From the NCBI GenBank assembly GCA_001778235.1, contig MFGJ01000007.1, positions 193,476 to 257,475 of the forward strand: 64,000 nt of DNA. The letters run 5' to 3'. The notes under the pieces are model-generated. The model was given only the letters and a program-made list of their open reading frames with translations. It was not told the DNA's origin and searched no databases. The translations under genes and the position numbers were made by a program. Positions 4,785 to 64,000 of the stretch are shown here, piece by piece. This DNA is from Candidatus Falkowbacteria bacterium RIFOXYC2_FULL_36_12. Lineage in GTDB: Bacteria; Patescibacteriota; Patescibacteriia; UBA11705. The first letter of the stretch is position 1, and each line of letters opens with the position of its first letter.

Positions 4785-5738
4785 CTAATTTTCAATTTCA
4801 GAATAAATTTGTTCTGCTTCAAAGCCTTTGAAACTATCAGGATTTAAAAAATCAACATCAGGATAAATTTCAATTTTTGATGGAGTGGAAATATTATTAA
4901 AAATACTCAAGGAAATATCGGTTTTTTCACCAGCATCAAGCTTGGCAACGGGATAGACGGTGGCATAGATCAAACGGCTACCCTGAAAAAGTAAAATCTT
5001 ATTGTAAACATCCCAGAAATTATACGCGCCTTTATTTTCAACTGAAAAATTCAGATTGCTAACATTGGCGACATCGGTTTGGCTGGCTGGGATAAATTTA
5101 CTGTCCTGAACTTCGAGCTGATATATTTTTTCCTTTAACTCTGGGTAGTGAGCTTGTTTTTTCCACTTGATACTATCCACCACCAAGGTTACTGGCTGGT
5201 TCGGTGTGATATTTTTGACACCAGTGGCCATGAGATAGTCTATCTGGGCCGGTAAAACAAAGGCAGTATAAACCTCTGTCACCTCACCATTTGATTCAAA
5301 GTGATATTGTATTTCAGGAATATACCAAGAAGTATTTATATTGCTTACTTCAGCAACAATGTTTGACTCGGTATCATTGGCTTTGATGCTAACGGCATAA
5401 TTCACAGTCAGCGGAGATGGCTTTGAGATTTCACTCAAATATTGGTAATTGAGACTTGGGCTGGTCAAAGCCTGATACATGGTATTTTTACTTGGGAGGT
5501 CCAGAAGGTAAAGATTCAAAATAGTATATAAAATAAAAATAGCTAAAATTAAATCAAACAGAGCTAGAACTAAGATAGTAAGTCGGCGGATGAGTAGTTT
5601 GTGAGCCACATACCAAAACCCGACTTTCATTTGATCAGCGGTTAATTCGCCACCTGTAGGGGTAAATTCAGCATGAGGTGGTTTGGGGATATTAGTTTCA
5701 ATTTTATTTGTATTTTGTGTTTGTTTTTGTCCGAACAT
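4785..5738 (-). CDS. Hypothetical bitopic membrane protein encoded next to the rodA-like gene
   Basis: 317 aa with one TM helix after an approximately 50 aa cytoplasmic N-terminus. No PBP SxxK motif was seen. Confidence 0.45.
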   Translation of the reverse strand: MFGQKQTQNTNKIETNIPKPPHAEFTPTGGELTADQMKVGFWYVAHKLLIRRLTILVLALFDLILAIFILYTILNLYLLDLPSKNTMYQALTSPSLNYQYLSEISKPSPLTVNYAVSIKANDTESNIVAEVSNINTSWYIPEIQYHFESNGEVTEVYTAFVLPAQIDYLMATGVKNITPNQPVTLVVDSIKWKKQAHYPELKEKIYQLEVQDSKFIPASQTDVANVSNLNFSVENKGAYNFWDVYNKILLFQGSRLIYATVYPVAKLDAGEKTDISLSIFNNISTPSKIEIYPDVDFLNPDSFKGFEAEQIYSEIEN

Positions 5739-8087: not shown

Positions 8088-8120
8088 AAAAAACAGCTGA
8101 AGTTAGTCAGTTGTTTTTTT
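8088..8120. terminator. Bidirectional rho-independent terminator (A-run, hairpin ACAGCUGA/UCAGUUGU, T-run)
   Basis: The hairpin is flanked by A6 and T7. An identical 30-nt copy lies at 8399-8430. Confidence 0.7.
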
Positions 8121-8398
8121 GGATAGTAAGATTGATGTTGCTAAAGCAAGTTTTTTTCAGATAAAGTGATTGATTACGCTCTGCGTGGTACTTTTTGATG
8201 GCAAAAAGTACCCAAAAACCATTGGGGGCTTTAATTGCTACTTATAAAAAACATTTCGTGCTTTGAACACGGCAAAAAGCCCCCAAACCCGAGGCTCACC
8301 ATGTTTGTGGGGATGAATAATAAAATTAATGATTGGTTTTGCTAAAGCATGCCCCAGACCTAGAGTTATCAAGCTTCATTCTTTTTACTTATAAATAA
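8121..8398. ncRNA. Candidate structured non-coding RNA or element bounded by two identical terminators
   Basis: This 278 bp segment has no ORF. It contains stems such as GGGGGCUUU...AAAGCCCCC and GUACUUUUUGAUGGCAAAAAGUAC. Its strand and identity are unknown. Confidence 0.3.
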
Positions 8399-8430
8399 AA
8401 AAACAGCTGAAGTTAGTCAGTTGTTTAAAT
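8399..8430. terminator. Second copy of the bidirectional terminator, serving the minus-strand gene ending at 8425
   Basis: On the minus strand the hairpin is followed by a U-run. Confidence 0.7.
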
Positions 8431-8859: not shown

Positions 8860-8980
8860 GCTGGCCTCCGTGGGGTGCTGGGGATGTAAGCATGTTACAA
8901 AAAAAGATTGAAGATTGAAGATCAAAGATCTGTTGATTATACTGAATCTTACAATAATTAATAGCCAAAGTCAATAAAAA

Positions 8981-9001
8981 ATTTACGAAATTTTCGTAAA
9001 T
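8981..9001. promoter_or_regulatory. Perfect palindrome ATTTACGAAA-T-TTTCGTAAAT just upstream of the gene C promoter; candidate operator
   Basis: A 10+10 inverted repeat lies 7 nt beyond the -35 element (plus-strand 8969-8974). Confidence 0.5.
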
Positions 9002-9007
9002 TTATTT

Positions 9008-9769
9008 TTATTCATCACACCAAAGGCTACCGTCAATCGAGACGCTTTGTAACTTATCATCTAACTTTAGGCCGAATCGCAATCCAAGAACTTTAAGCCC
9101 AGCGATAAAAGCGACAACCATTGAAGAGTCACCAGTCATATGTAAGGATATAAGTCTTTCCATGATTTCAATAAAGACCAAAAGTTGCTTCAACCTATTT
9201 TTGGCCCAGATTTCCATTCCTGCCAACTGCACCTCAATTGCAACATTATTAATGCTGTTACGAGTCAAAAACAGGTTAAAAGTAATTCTGTGATCTTTAT
9301 CGTAGAACACATCAATCTGCGCTGATTTGTACTGCGAAGAGAGCACCTGCCACCAAGTTTTCTCCTTATTATCATAAACTGCAATACTGCATTCTGATTT
9401 TTCATCTAGATCAATATCCTCTTTGATTTCCGGACGAGGTCTGACAATTCCGCCATAAGTAGTGTAATTGTAACTGACATCATATTTACTGACTTCAATC
9501 ATCTTACATAGCACATCTCCGATGGCAGTTAATGTCCACTGCTTAATCCTGTGTCGCAGTTCGCGAATAAAGCTCCTCAAAAAGTTATCCAACTCCGTGC
9601 TCATGGAATCAGTGATCTCTTGAATTGTGATGCGTTTTGAGTCAAGATGGACATCAATGATTATTTTGTTTTTAAACTTGAAGCCACCTGGATCAAATGT
9701 TCCTGGTACATGATTATCTTCAAACCCATAATCAATGATAAATGTCTTGTGTTTACAATCGAGATTCAT
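9008..9769 (-). CDS. Island gene B: hypothetical 253-aa protein (start MNLDCKHK)
   Basis: An AGGAGAA Shine-Dalgarno precedes the ATG at 9769. It contains GG-x11-DIDLD (YGGIVRPRPEIKEDIDLD), reminiscent of the minimal nucleotidyltransferase G[SG]...DxD motif. Confidence 0.5.
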   Translation of the reverse strand: MNLDCKHKTFIIDYGFEDNHVPGTFDPGGFKFKNKIIIDVHLDSKRITIQEITDSMSTELDNFLRSFIRELRHRIKQWTLTAIGDVLCKMIEVSKYDVSYNYTTYGGIVRPRPEIKEDIDLDEKSECSIAVYDNKEKTWWQVLSSQYKSAQIDVFYDKDHRITFNLFLTRNSINNVAIEVQLAGMEIWAKNRLKQLLVFIEIMERLISLHMTGDSSMVVAFIAGLKVLGLRFGLKLDDKLQSVSIDGSLWCDE

Positions 9770-10285: not shown

Positions 10286-10389
10286 TTAATTCTAAATTAA
10301 ACAAAAAAAACATTTCCACGAATAACAAATTTGCCACAAATCTACGGATATTTTTGTACATTTGTAAATATTTGTAATTCGTAACCAAT

Positions 10390-10623: not shown

Positions 10624-11169
10624 ATGCCAAAACAAGATACAAAAGTTGGTCGGCGCTGGTATGTAATCCATACTCAATCCGGTCATGAAGAATCAGTGGC
10701 AGAAAACTTGAAGCAAAGAATTGAGTCTATGGACATGGAAGATAAGATCTTCAGTGTGCTGATACCGACAGAGAAAAAAATCAGGATAAAAAATGGCAAG
10801 AGAAAAACCATTACTGAAAAAATCTTTCCTGGATATGTCTTTGTTGAAATGGTTGTAACCGATGATTCATGGTATGTTGTTCGCAACACACCAAATGTTA
10901 CTGGCTTTATTGGATCAGGCACGATCCCAACACCGATCTCTGAAGCTGAAATGAAAGAATTGCAGAAACGAATGGGTGTTGATGATCCAACAGTGTCTAT
11001 TGAGCTCACACCTGGAACTCCGGTAAAAATCACTGATGGTCCATTCAAAGACTATGAAGGACGAGTAGATGAAGTGGATGAAGAAAGAGGAAAAGTAAAA
11101 GTTGCGGTTTCAATGTTTGGACGAGAAACTCCAGTTGAACTTGATCCTTTGCAAGTAAAACAATTGTAA
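10624..11169 (+). CDS. nusG: Transcription termination/antitermination factor NusG
   Basis: RRWYVIHTQSGHE... NGN domain followed by a C-terminal KOW motif. Confidence 0.9.
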   Translation: MPKQDTKVGRRWYVIHTQSGHEESVAENLKQRIESMDMEDKIFSVLIPTEKKIRIKNGKRKTITEKIFPGYVFVEMVVTDDSWYVVRNTPNVTGFIGSGTIPTPISEAEMKELQKRMGVDDPTVSIELTPGTPVKITDGPFKDYEGRVDEVDEERGKVKVAVSMFGRETPVELDPLQVKQL

Positions 11170-11426
11170 TTACGAATATACTACTATTACAATTTTACGA
11201 ATATAAATTAAGTATTTGTTATAGTTGTAAATAGGAATAAATTTGTAATAAAAATTAGCAAGGAGAGGGGCTAAGAAATTTTCATTTTATTAATCAGTGA
11301 GCTTCTAAATATAATTACTAAACTACCTGCCTATCATAAAAGTTTTGGCAGGTGAGCAAAAAATTACAACCATTACAAAAGACAATCAATAGTAATATTG
11401 TAATTTCTAACAACAACAAGAAATAT

Positions 11427-14197: not shown

Positions 14198-14284
14198 TAC
14201 AAATATACGAAAACTACAAATATTACAAATGCATAAAATGGTCTAGGTATTTGTAATTTCTGTAATATTCGTAAATTCGTAATT
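14198..14284. repeat. R3 inverted-repeat element (solo, MITE-like): forward arm ..ATACGAAAACTACAAATATTACAAATGCAT, spacer, reverse arm GTATTTGTAATTTCTGTAATATTCGTAAATTCGTAAT
   Basis: Its arms are near-identical to the repeats flanking the GxxExxY gene at 34996-35036 and 35428-35470. It ends 1 nt before the start of the DHFR gene. Confidence 0.7.
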
Positions 14285-33666: not shown

Positions 33667-34992
33667 ATGAATTCATTTCCAAATTACAAAAATAAAAATA
33701 TTTTAATTCTTGGTCTTGGTCTGCTAGGTAGAGGGATCAAGGATACTATTTTTTTTGTAAAAAAAGGTGCGAATGTGACAGTGACTGACTTGAAAACAAA
33801 AGAACAACTCTCCACTGCTCTAAAGCAATTGAAACAATATAAAAACATCAAATTTGTTCTTGGAAAACACAGACATGAAGATATCGATAAAGCTGATCTG
33901 ATAATTCGTAATGCGGATGTGCCACTGAATTCAGAATTTCTTCAATATGCATTTAAAAAGAAAAAACTGGTTGAGATGGACGAATCAATGTTTGCGGAAT
34001 TTTGTCCTTGTCCAATAATTGGCATTACAGGAACTCGAGGTAAAACAACAACTGCGACCTTGATCTATGAATTTTTGAAAAAAACTGATAAAAAAGTTTA
34101 TCTAGCTGGGAATATAATGGGTCAAGCAACTTTGCCGCTTATGGATAAGGTAAAGAAAAATGATCTGGTGGTTTTGGAATTATCTAGCTGGCAACTTCAG
34201 GGCTTTGGATGGAAAAAAATCAGTCCGCAGGTTGCGGTTTTTACGAATATTTACCCTGATCATCTAAACCGCTACAAAGGAATGAGAGATTACATTGCTG
34301 ACAAACGAAATATTTACAAATGGCAACATAAAAATGATTATTTTATTGCGAATTCACGCGATAAAGTAACTAGCTCTGCGGTCAAATCGGCTAGAGCGAA
34401 AATCAAAATGTTCTCCAGCAGTCAGGTACCGAAATCTTGGGAGATAAAACTTTTCGGCGAGCATAATTTGGAAAATATTTCGGCAGCAATACAGGTAGCA
34501 AAGATTTTCAAAGTAAAAGACAAAGATATCCGAACTGTTTTGGCAAGATTTAAAGGAGTTGAACATCGATTGGAATTTGTAAAAAAAGTAAGTGGGATTG
34601 ATTTTATCAATGATACTACCAGTACAACGCCAATTGCAGGACAAATGGCGCTAGCCAGTTTGAACAAACCCATAATATTGATTGCTGGCGGAGCGACAAA
34701 ACAACTTGAATTAAAAAATTTTTCCAAAGATATTGCCCAAAAAGTAAAAGCCGTTGTTTTACTCAAAGGAACTGCGACCGATGAGCTGAAGAATGGGATT
34801 GTAAAATACAAAGGTGAAGATAAAATTCTTGGGGAATTTGATAATTTTGAGGAGGCAGTAAAAACTGCTTTTAAATACGCGGAAAAAGGTGATGTTGTTC
34901 TTCTCTCTCCGGGGTGTGCTAGTTTTGGTATGTTTACCAATGAATTTGATCGAGGGGAACAGTTTAAAAAAATTGTTAAGGATTTGAGATAA
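33667..34992 (+). CDS. murD: UDP-N-acetylmuramoylalanine--D-glutamate ligase
   Basis: Mur ligase with GITGTRGKTTT and a MurD-type Rossmann N-domain. Confidence 0.85.
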   Translation: MNSFPNYKNKNILILGLGLLGRGIKDTIFFVKKGANVTVTDLKTKEQLSTALKQLKQYKNIKFVLGKHRHEDIDKADLIIRNADVPLNSEFLQYAFKKKKLVEMDESMFAEFCPCPIIGITGTRGKTTTATLIYEFLKKTDKKVYLAGNIMGQATLPLMDKVKKNDLVVLELSSWQLQGFGWKKISPQVAVFTNIYPDHLNRYKGMRDYIADKRNIYKWQHKNDYFIANSRDKVTSSAVKSARAKIKMFSSSQVPKSWEIKLFGEHNLENISAAIQVAKIFKVKDKDIRTVLARFKGVEHRLEFVKKVSGIDFINDTTSTTPIAGQMALASLNKPIILIAGGATKQLELKNFSKDIAQKVKAVVLLKGTATDELKNGIVKYKGEDKILGEFDNFEEAVKTAFKYAEKGDVVLLSPGCASFGMFTNEFDRGEQFKKIVKDLR

Positions 34993-34995
34993 TGA

Positions 34996-35036
34996 TGCAA
35001 ATTTACGAATACTACAAATATTACAAATGCACATAA
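34996..35036. repeat. R3 repeat, forward arm (AAATTTACGAATACTACAAATATTACAAATGCAC) flanking the GxxExxY gene
   Basis: Its reverse complement is found at 35428-35470. Confidence 0.7.
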
Positions 35037-35042
35037 AGAGAC

Positions 35043-35423
35043 ATGAAAGATAAAGTTTTATATAAGGATTTAAGCTATATAGTAGGTGGCATTTTGTTCC
35101 AAGTATATAATTATCATGGTTTCGGACTTAGAGAAAAAATATATTGCCAATATATAAATAAGCTTTTAAGAGAGAATAAAATTAACTTTCAAGAACAATT
35201 TACAATTCCAGTAAAATACTATAATAGACATGAAGTAAAAAGATACGCTGATTTTCTGATTGATGATCAAATTATTTTAGAGTTAAAAACGGGAAAAAGA
35301 TTGTTTGGTAAAGATTTTGATCAAACTTTTGAATACTTAAAATTAACAAATAAAAAACTGGGGCTACTCGTGTTATTCTCACCAGAAAAAGTAATAATCC
35401 ATAGAGTCCTAAATAACCAGTAA
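35043..35423 (+). CDS. GxxExxY-family protein (PD-(D/E)XK nuclease-like), copy 1, inserted between murD and ftsW
   Basis: The motifs GxxExxY (GLREKIY), DFLIDD and ELK match the family. Confidence 0.7.
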   Translation: MKDKVLYKDLSYIVGGILFQVYNYHGFGLREKIYCQYINKLLRENKINFQEQFTIPVKYYNRHEVKRYADFLIDDQIILELKTGKRLFGKDFDQTFEYLKLTNKKLGLLVLFSPEKVIIHRVLNNQ

Positions 35424-35427
35424 ACAC

Positions 35428-35470
35428 CAGTCGTAGTATTTGTAATATTTGTAGTATTCGTAAATTTGTA
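35428..35470. repeat. R3 repeat, reverse arm (TAGTATTTGTAATATTTGTAGTATTCGTAAATTTGTAA), ending 7 nt before the ftsW ATG
   Basis: Inverted copy of 34996-35036. Confidence 0.7.
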
Positions 35471-35477
35471 ACCAAAG

Positions 35478-36623
35478 ATGAGATTAAAAAAAATAAGCAA
35501 AAGAACAACAGCTAAACAGGAAGAAGGTCACAAACCAGATATTATCTTGATTGCATCATTTGCAATCTTGCTTTTATTTGGACTCATAATGTTGACCTCG
35601 GCCAGTTCTTCAATTGGCTATGAAAAATTTGGAGATAGTTATTACTTCATAAAACATCAATTAATTTCAGGTTTACTGCCAGGAATAATTTTATTCTTTA
35701 TTTTTTCTAAAATATACTATAAACATTTACAAAAAATTGCTAATATTTTGCTCTTTGTCTCTATTTTGCTACTAATCAGTGTATTTATTCCAGGAATAGG
35801 AGCTGAATACGGTACAGCCAAGAGTTGGGTATCGGTTTTTGGACTTTCATTCCAACCAGCTGAATTTGTCAAACTAACCTTCCTACTCTACCTAGCAAAT
35901 TGGTTGTCGAAACGAGGTGAGACTGGAATTCGTGATTTTTATTTTGGGTTAATGCCGTTTTTCTTCTTGATTGGGGTAGTTTCACTGCTTATGGTACTTC
36001 AACCTGACCTCGGTACCTTGGCAATTATTATTTTCATGTGCATGGCAGTTTTCTTTGCTTCAGGAGCTAGATTGAAACATGTAATGGGTTTAATTGCTTT
36101 CGGCACTACTGGGATTTTACTTTTGATTAAAGTATCGCCTTATCGGGCGGCTAGATTGACAACTTTTCTTCATCCAGAATTGGACCCACTGGGAATCGGC
36201 TATCATATTAACCAAGCTTTCTTGGCAATAGGATCAGGGAAATTCTGGGGGCGAGGATTTGGCTATTCAAGACAGAAGTTTCAATATCTGCCTGAAGTTT
36301 CAGGTGATTCAATCTTTGCAGTGATTGCAGAAGAGCTGGGTTTTTTTATTAGCGCTTTATTTGTATTTTTGTTTGTATTTCTAATGATTCGCGGATTCAA
36401 AGTGGCGCAAAGAACTCCTGATAAATTTGGGCAGTTGGTTGCAACGGGTATTATTGCTTGGTTTATTTTTCAAGCCTTTTTCAATATCAGTTCAATGGTT
36501 GGTCTGATGCCAATGACTGGTGTTCCCCTTCCATTTGTCAGTGCAGGTGGAACTGCTCTGGCTGTGGGTATGGCGGCTATGGGAATTCTAGTAAATATTT
36601 CTAAACATACAAAGAATTCATAA
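35478..36623 (+). CDS. ftsW: Cell-division SEDS protein FtsW
   Basis: SEDS profile; it follows murD in the dcw order. Confidence 0.85.
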   Translation: MRLKKISKRTTAKQEEGHKPDIILIASFAILLLFGLIMLTSASSSIGYEKFGDSYYFIKHQLISGLLPGIILFFIFSKIYYKHLQKIANILLFVSILLLISVFIPGIGAEYGTAKSWVSVFGLSFQPAEFVKLTFLLYLANWLSKRGETGIRDFYFGLMPFFFLIGVVSLLMVLQPDLGTLAIIIFMCMAVFFASGARLKHVMGLIAFGTTGILLLIKVSPYRAARLTTFLHPELDPLGIGYHINQAFLAIGSGKFWGRGFGYSRQKFQYLPEVSGDSIFAVIAEELGFFISALFVFLFVFLMIRGFKVAQRTPDKFGQLVATGIIAWFIFQAFFNISSMVGLMPMTGVPLPFVSAGGTALAVGMAAMGILVNISKHTKNS

Positions 36624-39569: not shown

Positions 39570-39662
39570 GTTACAAAATTACGAAAAATTACAAACATTA
39601 CAAAAGTTAGAATTAGTGAGTTACGAAACTACAAAAGATTACGAACATTACAAAAATTAGAA
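39570..39662. repeat. R3 repeat arms (TTACGAAA/ACTACAAAAG units, two copies) flanking GxxExxY copy 2
   Basis: The inverted partner is at 40047-40088. Confidence 0.65.
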
Positions 39663-40046
39663 TTAGATATTGTTTAGAATTCTATAAATATCTGCTTTTT
39701 CTGACCCAAAAAGAACCAGCAATCCCAATTTATACCCAGACAACTTCAAATATTCAGTTACCTGATCAAAATCTTTTTGGTATAATCTTTTACCTACTTT
39801 CACTTCTATAACGATTTTATCATCAATAATAAAGTCAAAATATCTGTTGCTTAATTTTTCACTATATAATGTTAAAGGAACTTTATATTGTTCTTCAAAT
39901 GAAATATTGTTTTGTTTTAATAGCTTCCCCAAACTTTGGCAATAAGTTTTTTCTCTGTATCCAGGACCATGATATTTAAAAACTTGAAAAACAATCCCAT
40001 TCAAAACATAACTTAGATCTTTATATATTAGCTTATCTACGCTCAT
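39663..40046 (-). CDS. GxxExxY-family protein (PD-(D/E)XK nuclease-like), copy 2 (start MSVDKLIYKDLSY)
   Basis: A paralogue of the gene at 35043..35423 (GYREKTY, DFIIDD, EVK). The ORF-track start at 40097 is an over-extension into the repeat. Confidence 0.65.
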   Translation of the reverse strand: MSVDKLIYKDLSYVLNGIVFQVFKYHGPGYREKTYCQSLGKLLKQNNISFEEQYKVPLTLYSEKLSNRYFDFIIDDKIVIEVKVGKRLYQKDFDQVTEYLKLSGYKLGLLVLFGSEKADIYRILNNI

Positions 40047-40088
40047 ATTTTCGTAATCTTTTGTAGTCTTTTGTAGTTTTGTAATCAC
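40047..40088. repeat. R3 repeat arm directly abutting the start of GxxExxY copy 2
   Basis: ATTTTCGTAATCTTTTGTAGTCTTTTGTAGTTTTGTAATCAC. Confidence 0.65.
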
Positions 40089-49281: not shown

Positions 49282-49288
49282 ATATTAA

Positions 49289-49325
49289 AGTGTAATACTA
49301 AATTGTGTTATACTTTTTTTGTTTT
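49289..49325 (+). terminator. Intrinsic terminator (GUGUAAUAC/GUGUUAUAC stem with G-U pairs plus U-run)
   Basis: Read directly from the sequence. Confidence 0.5.
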
Positions 49326-49498: not shown

Positions 49499-49936
49499 AT
49501 GCGAAATTTATTATCAAACGAATCAGATTCAAAAAAACTGCAAAGAGCATGGGACTTAGATCAGAAGGCTTTGTTTTTGGCAGACAAAGATATCCAAAAA
49601 AAACTTTGGTCAGAAGCTATAAATATCTGCAAAAAATTACTAAAAAAATATGGGAACAATTTTCCAGATAATTTACAAATAATATACAAAATATTTTTAA
49701 TTTATCTACATCAGAAAAAAATTTTACTCGCAAAAAGATATATTGATAAAGCCTGGAATTTAGATAAAAATAATCCCATAACACTATTTAACTACGGCAA
49801 TTTTTATAGGGCGATAAATAAACCCAAATTGGCAATAAAATATTACGAATCAGCATCAAAGAAAAGTAGTACTAAAATCTTTGGAGAAGAATTAAAAAAA
49901 TATCTAACTTTTATAAATAAAAACAAAAAAGGATAA
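49499..49936 (+). CDS. TPR-repeat protein, apparently leaderless (TTTACA-16-TATAAT ends 6 nt before the ATG)
   Basis: TPR-like helical repeats (AWNLDKNNPITLFNYGNFYRAINKPKLAIKYYE). Confidence 0.5.
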   Translation: MRNLLSNESDSKKLQRAWDLDQKALFLADKDIQKKLWSEAINICKKLLKKYGNNFPDNLQIIYKIFLIYLHQKKILLAKRYIDKAWNLDKNNPITLFNYGNFYRAINKPKLAIKYYESASKKSSTKIFGEELKKYLTFINKNKKG

Positions 49937-50144
49937 CACAACTTTGTATTATCCTTATCTTTTATGACATTTATTACAACTGCTTGTCGGATCCAGTAAA
50001 ATAACCCCTATTTGTACAATCTTCAAACCAAAGGTGATATTGGAAGACTTGGATAAGTTGAAATTACTTAATGAACAAGGTAACAACAATGTTGCATCAG
50101 ACAAGACTTTGTAGTGTTTCTTTTTTTCCTGGATTTGGCTCGCT

Positions 50145-63439: not shown

Positions 63440-64000
63440 TTATAATGAATTATACCCTGAAATCCATCTTCGTTAAAACTTCCGACTACGCTCTTTTGGG
63501 AGCTTCGACGGACAAGTCGATGGACAAGTAAATTCAGAGCCTGCCCTGAATTTAGTTCAGGGGTGACAAATGGGAGATGCTGAAAACAGTCCCCAGAGAT
63601 CCTGAAACAAGTTCAGGATGACGAGTGTAGTGTTCAGTATGACGAGTGTAGTGTTCAGGATAACGAGTGTAGTGTTCAGGATGACGAGTGTAGGGTTCAG
63701 GATGACGAGTGGTGTGTTGTCCTGTCACTCTGAACTCCTGCCTGTCGGCAGACAGGTGTTTCAGAGTCTCCTGAATTGACCATGTAGGAAGGAGGGAAAG
63801 AATTTAAATTTTGAATAGTTATACCCTGAAATCCATCTTCGTTAAAACTTCGATGGACAAGCAAATTCAGGGTGACAAGTGAGAGGGCGAAGAATTATAC
63901 CCTGAAACCACGCACTATAAACAAGTTTAAGTGCAAGACAAGCAAGTTCAGAGCCTGCCCTGAATTTAGTTCAGGGGTGACAAAATCTAATTATTCACCG
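63440..64000. repeat. Dense R2 repeat cluster including a 21-bp tandem array (GACGAGTGTAGTGTTCAGGAT, about 5 copies, 63617-63725) and several CCCTGAA...TTCAGGG nested-hairpin units
   Basis: Read directly. The repeats are contiguous with no unique spacers, so this is not a CRISPR array. Confidence 0.8.

Follow-up and report, generated by a model that had tools for sequence, protein, structure and literature searches.

In REPIN-RAYT systems (doublets of the repetitive extragenic palindrome, REP, and the REP-associated tyrosine transposase), an enzyme gene lies between inverted copies of a short hairpin-forming repeat that is also dispersed without the gene in intergenic regions, and no target-site duplications accompany it. 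Rickettsia palindromic elements (RPE) also occur in-frame within protein-coding genes, where they are translated. The intervening sequence (IVS) of the Coxiella 23S rRNA gene is a selfish element of 428 nt whose inverted-repeat stem is cut by RNase III, and its open reading frame (ORF; 14 kDa product, PF05635) is preceded directly before the ATG by 3–4 tandem heptamers GACAGAT (PMC4990558). The number of heptamers (2 versus 3) is reported to vary among Coxiella strains. A survey of rRNA insertions in the candidate phyla radiation (CPR) reported 22 PF05635 ORFs and no PDDEXK_3 (PMC11270868). Here, we describe a 471-bp cassette, made of a GxxExxY-family gene between perfect inverted arms, which separates murD from ftsW in a 64,000-nt stretch of Candidatus Falkowbacteria bacterium RIFOXYC2_FULL_36_12 (contig MFGJ01000007.1, positions 193,476 to 257,475; hereafter the window). 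The cassette resembles a hairpin-bounded selfish element in the manner of IVS, REPIN-RAYT, RPE and homing endonuclease genes, but it lacks defining features of each.

Anatomy of the murD-ftsW cassette

The cassette (34998–35468) and its host genes are arranged as follows.

33667–34992, + strand: murD, upstream host gene (Pfam Mur_ligase_M/C, MurD-like_N), with its stop codon 5 nt 5' of the left arm.
34998–35028: left arm, CAAATTTACGAATACTACAAATATTACAAAT, three TACRAAT-type units with 9-nt spacing.
35043–35423, + strand: GxxExxY PD-(D/E)XK nuclease-like ORF, 126 aa (PF13366, TIGR04256).
35438–35468: right arm, perfect reverse complement of the left arm, 9 nt ahead of the ftsW ATG.
35478–36623, + strand: ftsW, downstream host gene (PF01098, E=5e-96).

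Domain matches and coordinates confirm that a GxxExxY-family ORF lies between murD and ftsW, as a preliminary description of the window had claimed. The inverted flanks that it placed at 34996–35036 and 35428–35470 are a perfect 31-nt inverted repeat, for which those ranges were slightly too wide. All positions of the arms are complementary (100%; 31 of 31) across the 409 nt in between, and no other inverted repeat in the window is as long or as good when repeats within 1.5 kb are compared. The arm 30-mer quoted in that description has 3 matches in the window at up to 3 mismatches, while none was found in 100 shuffles. The arms pair as a closing stem, predicted to be 31–37 bp long, in both the minimum free energy (MFE) and the centroid folds (z=-4.9). 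No signal above shuffles was given by a promoter and terminator scan of the cassette. Rfam covariance models matched nothing in the window at gathering thresholds, its solo hairpins included, and nothing in 34900–35560 at E≤5.

With the rRNA IVS the cassette shares a length of about 0.43–0.47 kb, one ORF of about 120 aa, inverted-repeat arms closing a long stem, tandem heptamers directly before the ORF ATG, the existence of ORF-less hairpin versions and a sporadic distribution as expected of horizontal spread (PMC4990558, PMC11270868). However, it occupies a junction in an mRNA operon and not helix 25 or 45 of rRNA, unlike the rRNA IVS (Coxiella, Leptospira, also CPR rRNA insertions). The IVS cargo is a four-helix bundle ('S23p') instead of a PD-(D/E)XK nuclease-like protein, and RNase III excision is known for the IVS, whereas the cassette has a predicted stem only. 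As in REPIN-RAYT systems, the cassette repeat is also dispersed as gene-less hairpins (three in the window) and target-site duplication is missing, but the enzyme is of the PD-(D/E)XK type and not an HUH Y1 transposase (RAYT), the arms are arrays of 7–9-nt units and not a single REP palindrome, and there are several paralogues per genome.

Second cassette and gene-less hairpins in the window

The same units recur around a second GxxExxY gene and at three places without a gene.

39663–40046, − strand: second GxxExxY paralogue (PF13366, TIGR04256), starting at the 40046 ATG, with a product of 127 aa that is 59% identical to the first.
40047–40084: upstream arm of the second cassette, TTACAAAACTACAAAAGACTACAAAAGATTACGAAAAT as read on the gene strand, abutting the ATG.
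39570–39666: downstream arms of the second cassette, a four-unit array in two tandem 47-nt copies that are 87% alike.
14198–14281: gene-less hairpin with the same units as the cassette, 38-nt arms (79% complementary), filling the spacer from a stop codon to the next ATG (14286).
10318–10382: gene-less hairpin with CACGAAT, AACAAAT, CACAAAT and CTACGGAT units, 8 nt ahead of a secE-like ATG.
11166–11260: weaker, degenerate gene-less hairpin 3' of a nusG-like gene (fold z=-3.1).

In the second cassette, one inverted repeat has 25 nt (88%) and the other 21 nt (95%). Between the left arm of the 14198–14281 hairpin and the murD-ftsW arm, only 2 of 30 positions differ, and RNA and DNA folds of the three solo hairpins reach z=-3.1 to -3.8. 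Two further claims of the preliminary description thus stand: arms related to those of the first cassette flank the second paralogue on both sides, and solo arm pairs without a gene exist as three hairpins of the same units, once trimmed to the coordinates above. A minimal one-unit hairpin, AATAAAAAATTTACGAAA / TTTCGTAAATTTATTTTT, with the TACGAA core of the cassettes, was also seen at 8973–9009.

Insertion relative to syntenic relatives

The three closest available relatives have a MurD 65–68% identical to that of the window and the gene order radical-SAM, 132-aa ORF, mraY, murD, ftsW, iscS, nifU, rrf2. In two of them, both Falkowbacteria (MurD 65–66%), the cassette is absent: murD and ftsW are separated by 7 nt in L092 and overlap by 4 nt in L093. 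Because the two genes are 7 nt apart or overlapping in these syntenic relatives, the murD-ftsW cassette is an insertion relative to them. In the closest relative (L091, MurD 68%), the junction holds an unrelated GC-richer spacer of 330 nt (5345–5674) without TACRAAT units or a GxxExxY gene, and the junction seems to be a recurrent insertion point. The site is thus filled in the window and empty in L092 and L093, a comparison of alleles at genus level only. Empty sites and presence/absence polymorphism in related genomes, which the preliminary description had proposed to look for, were both found in this way. In base composition, the GC content of cassette ORFs is 26–27% versus 34–37% in neighbouring genes (murD-ftsW ORF: 26% versus 35–37%).

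The GxxExxY protein

The murD-ftsW ORF matches PF13366 (E=1.1e-23; 84.2 bits, cut-off 22) and TIGR04256 (E=3.4e-24; 85.5 bits, cut-off 35), and the second paralogue scores 85.7 bits (TIGR04256) and 87.0 bits (PF13366). In the murD-ftsW ORF, the G28/E31/Y34 motif and the D70/E80/K82 triad of PD-(D/E)XK enzymes are intact. Among 82 aligned sequences, residues outside the pattern used for fetching loci (E31, Y34, E80, K82, Q94, Y98 and R121) are 98–100% conserved, and therefore the enzyme is under selection. The AlphaFold2 (AF2) model (pLDDT 90.1) has a minimal PD-(D/E)XK alpha/beta fold, for which the best Foldseek match is Cas4 SSO0001 (E=2.5e-5), along with LHK-Exo, lambda exonuclease and MGME1, followed by tRNA-splicing endonuclease and Hjc. 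Judged from motifs and model, the product is PD-(D/E)XK nuclease-like, with a predicted nuclease activity.

A hidden Markov model (HMM) search of 1.84 billion representatives gave 22,716 clusters (50% identity) at E≤1e-3. In the best 150 of these clusters, 87 proteins are stand-alone, 39 are tandem two-domain proteins (P0247, P0248 and 37 more) and 24 are embedded in larger proteins. The tandem proteins are about 260–275 aa long with motifs intact in both halves; they look like single-chain pseudo-dimers and would be consistent with a dimeric enzyme.

A role in anti-phage defence was considered and found no support in PADLOC, which gave no match for the first copy and, for the second, only a match at E=0.009 to a PDDEXK protein associated with defence-associated reverse transcriptases (DRT). 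In PHROG, the second paralogue has a weak 'homing endonuclease' match (E=6e-5).

Flanking unit arrays across the family

We surveyed 80 loci with 81 GxxExxY genes, from relatives represented by one genome per species. They come from many CPR lineages, Bacteroidota, Planctomycetota, metagenome-assembled genomes (MAGs) labelled Gammaproteobacteria and Bdellovibrionales, and a Pacearchaeota (DPANN) archaeon. A flanking inverted repeat scoring at least 12 is present at 81.5% of the genes (66 of 81) versus 0.4% of shifted controls (2 of 567); at a score of at least 14, the numbers are 54 of 81 (67%) versus no control. The association of GxxExxY genes with the repeats elsewhere, on which the preliminary description had made its reading depend, is borne out by these counts. 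In the surveyed loci, TACGAA upstream and TTCGTA downstream of the genes are enriched about 50-fold, and the arm units follow the consensus T-A-C-R-A-A-T with a period of 7–9 (mode 8) and a median of 4 units per side.

The arrays have a fixed polarity. Among close hairpins in the window and the other loci, 14 distinct cases run from forward to reverse units (F->R; 16 counted, with L017 twice) and none from R to F, while at gene-sized spacing the F..R order occurs 41 times versus 5 times for R..F. Most cassettes (91%; 73 of 80) are co-oriented with both neighbour genes. Median gaps to the neighbours are only 66 nt upstream and 49 nt downstream, and therefore the arms fill the entire spacer. More complex layouts also occur, such as F-gene-F-R and FFR-gene-FFR, or an entire hairpin that is directly repeated on either side of the gene. 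Multi-arm layouts of the first two kinds were noted in L033, L037, L059, L062 and L081.

Unit sequence follows the protein. Clades of the GxxExxY protein match the unit types ACGAAA, GCGAAT, ACAGAT and CTCTAAT, and protein identity is 50% for pairs with the same unit versus 43.5% for pairs with different units, a result reached in 0 of 2000 permutations. Distant plasmid-borne members from cultured bacteria follow the same principle but have other units, for example CACAGAGA / TCTCTGTG in Bernardetia and a 12-nt inverted repeat in Treponema. In the fetched loci, no ORF family other than GxxExxY was found between the arrays.

Arrays were also sought away from the gene. Among the metagenome matches listed for the 18-mer arm core, most are chance matches, with the source organism absent, and of the true arrays in metagenome matches about 7 of 8 lack a gene. 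In viral contigs, the pattern of three TACGAA units gave 120 loci with no GxxExxY gene and only 3 hairpins; therefore arrays alone are not diagnostic.

The preliminary description had called the solo arm pairs MITE-like, after miniature inverted-repeat transposable elements (MITEs), and had suggested defining target-site duplications at the arm termini. Gene-less hairpins do exist. However, the length distribution of direct repeats at 44 inverted-repeat boundaries is that of the mismatched-pair control, with no target-site duplication above it, and no known transposase is encoded by the ORF. The label therefore holds as an analogy and not as membership. A related possibility is a classical terminal inverted repeat (TIR) transposon or MITE, moved by a DDE-type transposase encoded elsewhere with GxxExxY as a passenger. 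Such an element would have inverted repeats bounding the ORF and gene-less copies, as observed, and transposases are present in some host genomes. However, the cassette shares with these elements the terminal inverted repeats but neither the target-site duplication nor a cognate transposase (DDE, HUH or serine/tyrosine recombinase). No transposase domain is present in the sole ORF of the murD-ftsW cassette (PF13366) or in the neighbouring genes, and no transposase was found in the loci adjoining cassettes. The arms are tandem unit arrays co-varying with the GxxExxY clade, and the association with this ORF family extends across phyla. We therefore regard the classical-transposon explanation as very improbable.

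Recurring junctions

Immediate neighbours of the cassettes are mostly unrelated housekeeping genes, 92 of 151 being singletons. Some tight junctions recur, including LemA|HtpX (7 loci), the small and large subunits of NiFe-hydrogenase (4 loci), gmd|epimerase and the position upstream of recA. The LemA|HtpX cassettes (HtpX is a peptidase M48) lie in seven different genomes (L015, L016, L021, L034, L059, L065 and L090); they represent at least two protein clades and arm types, and the right arm ends 0–5 nt ahead of the HtpX ATG.

Such regularity could be read as a resident host function, in which the hairpins punctuate operons as REP-like stabiliser or processing sites, the GxxExxY gene is one of the host's ordinary nuclease genes, framed by them by chance, and neither is mobile. 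The conserved catalytic residues, the occupation of the LemA|HtpX junction in 7 taxa and the position of hairpins exactly between stop and start codons agree with this explanation. However, the nearest syntenic relatives lack the cassette, its GC content is low, the host contexts are unrelated, and the same junction holds two protein clades and arm types. Within one genome, several paralogues differ in their arms, and insertions lie in-frame in essential proteins (next section). This explanation is improbable in our view, and like the classical-transposon one it is poorly supported.

In-frame insertions in conserved proteins

The embedded copies sit at specific points of conserved proteins. 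In RecG, an in-frame GxxExxY domain lies between DEQHRFG and MTATPIPR at the same site in 4 representatives (P0285, P0326, P0358 and P0387), and in GatB it lies inside the catalytic domain at the same site in 2 representatives (P0343 and P0340). The domain is ahead of DTPGH in LepA (P0290) and behind DKTGTLT in a P-type ATPase. Further in-frame hosts are asparagine synthase (AsnB), a transketolase-like protein, DHFR and glycosyltransferases. Other representatives with an embedded GxxExxY domain are P0388, P0317, P0312, P0389, P0329, P0347, P0356 and P0311.

Embedded copies have no start Met or stop codon and have a YDTAR tail in common. Their flank peptides, T-Q-I-D-A-D to the left of the domain and Q-R-x-S-A to its right, are mutual reverse-complement translations (CGCAGATTGACGCTG and CAGCGTCAATCTGCG), and therefore the inverted arms were kept and translated. 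Back-translation compatibility of the arms was significant in 1–4 of 15 embedded proteins, in a test of low power. Such in-frame invasion of conserved proteins is typical selfish-DNA behaviour.

Two known groups are close to this pattern. Homing endonuclease genes (free-standing or borne by inteins or introns, with I-Ssp6803I as a PD-(D/E)XK example) are likewise small nuclease genes that are present or absent at the same conserved sites across taxa; the GxxExxY insertions also adjoin conserved motifs (RecG motifs II/III, ATPase DKTGTLT, LepA DTPGH) and lack target-site duplication. However, the cassette has no intron or intein framework, and homing genes are not known to have inverted unit arrays. 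RPE and bacterial MITEs (Correia/NEMIS, ERIC) are palindromic elements in intergenic junctions, and RPE also occur in-frame, as GxxExxY does, but they carry no ORF, and MITEs have target-site duplications and a cognate transposase, whereas the cassette has an ORF and no duplication.

Four-helix-bundle genes with similar arms

The likeness to the rRNA IVS was followed at PF05635 genes. The PF05635 query was a consensus sequence validated as PF05635 (E=1e-34), after which real proteins were retrieved. We examined 3 genomic loci (L334–L336) and 14 from a viral collection (to L350). The genomic ones lie inside operons that are unrelated to each other, in a Flavobacterium cobalamin operon, between cas2 and cas1 in Anabaena, and between hsdS and hsdR in Anaerolineae. 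PF05635 genes with arrays are also present in CPR loci that hold GxxExxY cassettes. Gene positions are given below.

L334, 6001–6375: PF05635 gene.
L335, 6001–6351: PF05635 gene.
L336, 1636–1989: PF05635 gene.
L063, 1364–1750: PF05635 gene.
L033, 889–1236: PF05635 gene.

Inverted arrays far above controls were found at 15 of 17 PF05635 loci (13 of 15 distinct). Their period is strictly 7 and their unit sequences are very different; L346 has TACGAAT in the opposite polarity. Conversely, the ACAGAT unit, as in the heptamer of the Coxiella IVS, is present in GxxExxY arms (L071 and L083). Two near-identical PF05635 cassettes (L339 and L340) differ only in the number of CTCATTA units in their downstream arrays. 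This matches the variation between 2 and 3 heptamers reported for Coxiella strains, and it suggests that the arms are subject to slippage.

These parallels bear on an RNA-level explanation, an 'intervening sequence of an operon', in which the arms form a dsRNA stem of about 35 bp, RNase III excises the ORF loop and separates the murD and ftsW cistrons, and the ORF is a cargo spread by other means. The anatomy matches the Coxiella 23S IVS, including the ACAGAT unit in some GxxExxY arms and the inverted period-7 arrays at PF05635 loci; the closing stem is predicted by both kinds of fold; and cassettes lie mostly in sense with no promoter or terminator of their own found. However, mismatches in the arms show no sense-strand G:U bias (119 G:T/T:G versus 101 A:C/C:A), and a stem does not require the fixed F->R polarity. 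Cleavage without ligation would destroy the in-frame RecG, GatB and LepA copies; in-frame copies have translated arms, which argues that arm cleavage in RNA cannot be obligatory. No RNase III signature was matched in the 64-kb window, which carries no weight either way. We consider this explanation rather unlikely as a full account, and it is partly compatible with the one that we favour.

A wider grouping can be proposed tentatively, and we would sooner doubt it than adopt it at present. GxxExxY cassettes, PF05635 cassettes including the rRNA IVS, gene-less hairpins and possibly the cyanobacterial heptamer 'STRR' repeats (short tandemly repeated repetitive sequences, which we take to be a possible member) might form one superfamily of inverted 7–9-nt-unit hairpin elements. 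The GxxExxY nuclease would mobilise them in cis and perhaps in trans, and they would invade operon junctions, rRNA helices and, in-frame, loops of essential proteins across Bacteria and DPANN archaea.

A proposed homing-like selfish cassette

The explanation towards which we lean, with somewhat more confidence than doubt, is that of a selfish promoterless cassette. It draws on the observed anatomy, insertion, generality, polarity, orientation, missing duplications, co-variation and in-frame variants. The murD-ftsW ORF, inserted in sense, would be expressed by read-through from murD. The nuclease, as a dimer, may cut DNA at or near cognate arrays, or cut naive copies of the occupied site, and recombinational repair would then copy the cassette in a homing-like manner. 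Copying of this kind would account for the absence of duplications, for junctions that are used again in other taxa and for arms that are often perfect. Hairpins without a gene could be ORF-less derivatives or landing pads. The arms may also pair in the transcript, as in the rRNA IVS, which may limit harm to the host operon. The claim that GxxExxY genes ride in mobile inverted-repeat cassettes is thus upheld for the insertion and for the family-wide repeats, while we infer the mobility and did not observe it.

Several points weigh against this explanation. A homing nuclease normally needs no inverted repeats, and therefore homing by itself does not account for what the arms do. Four-helix-bundle genes, which encode no nuclease, have analogous arms, and by analogy with these PF05635 loci the arms may have a role that does not concern the ORF product. 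That different taxa have a cassette at the same junction could in part reflect vertical inheritance. Within the Rifle population there is no polymorphism, as ten contigs are 100% identical over both cassettes, and no active movement was seen. In the cultured Bernardetia, 100 kb of the replicon around its single cassette have no gene-less arrays of its unit, and therefore proliferation is not universal. The 81 surveyed genes are one subfamily, defined by a sequence pattern.

Other inverted repeats in the window

A 38-nt inverted repeat (49288–49325 / 49919–49956; 82% complementary) lies around a 145-aa ORF (49499–49936) similar to tetratricopeptide repeat (TPR) proteins, and its units are unrelated to TACRAAT. 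Terminator-like palindromes, AAACAGCTGAAGTTAGTCAGTTGTTTTTTT and AAGTAAATTCAGAGCCTGCCCTGAATTT, are found in two places, each repeated about 300–400 nt apart and framing short stretches.

8091–8120 / 8397–8426: repeated terminator-like palindrome.
63526–63553 / 63944–63971: repeated terminator-like palindrome.

Significance

In the full-text literature that was searched, which lacks many subscription papers, we found no description of the flanking arrays or of in-frame GxxExxY insertions, no function given for the GxxExxY family and nothing on its genomic build. In summary, the recurrence of this build across many phyla points towards a class of selfish DNA that has not been described and that is related to the rRNA IVS. 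If the cassette reading is true, a nuclease that acts on unit arrays or on empty sites would be suggested by the nearly universal anatomy, by the sites found empty and by the in-frame insertions in RecG, GatB and LepA. In CPR and other metagenome-assembled genomes, cassettes would interrupt conserved operons and cause gene calls to be inflated or fused. The GxxExxY family would also be linked to the origin and spread of the rRNA IVS and the 'S23p' ORFs, a puzzle of about 30 years.

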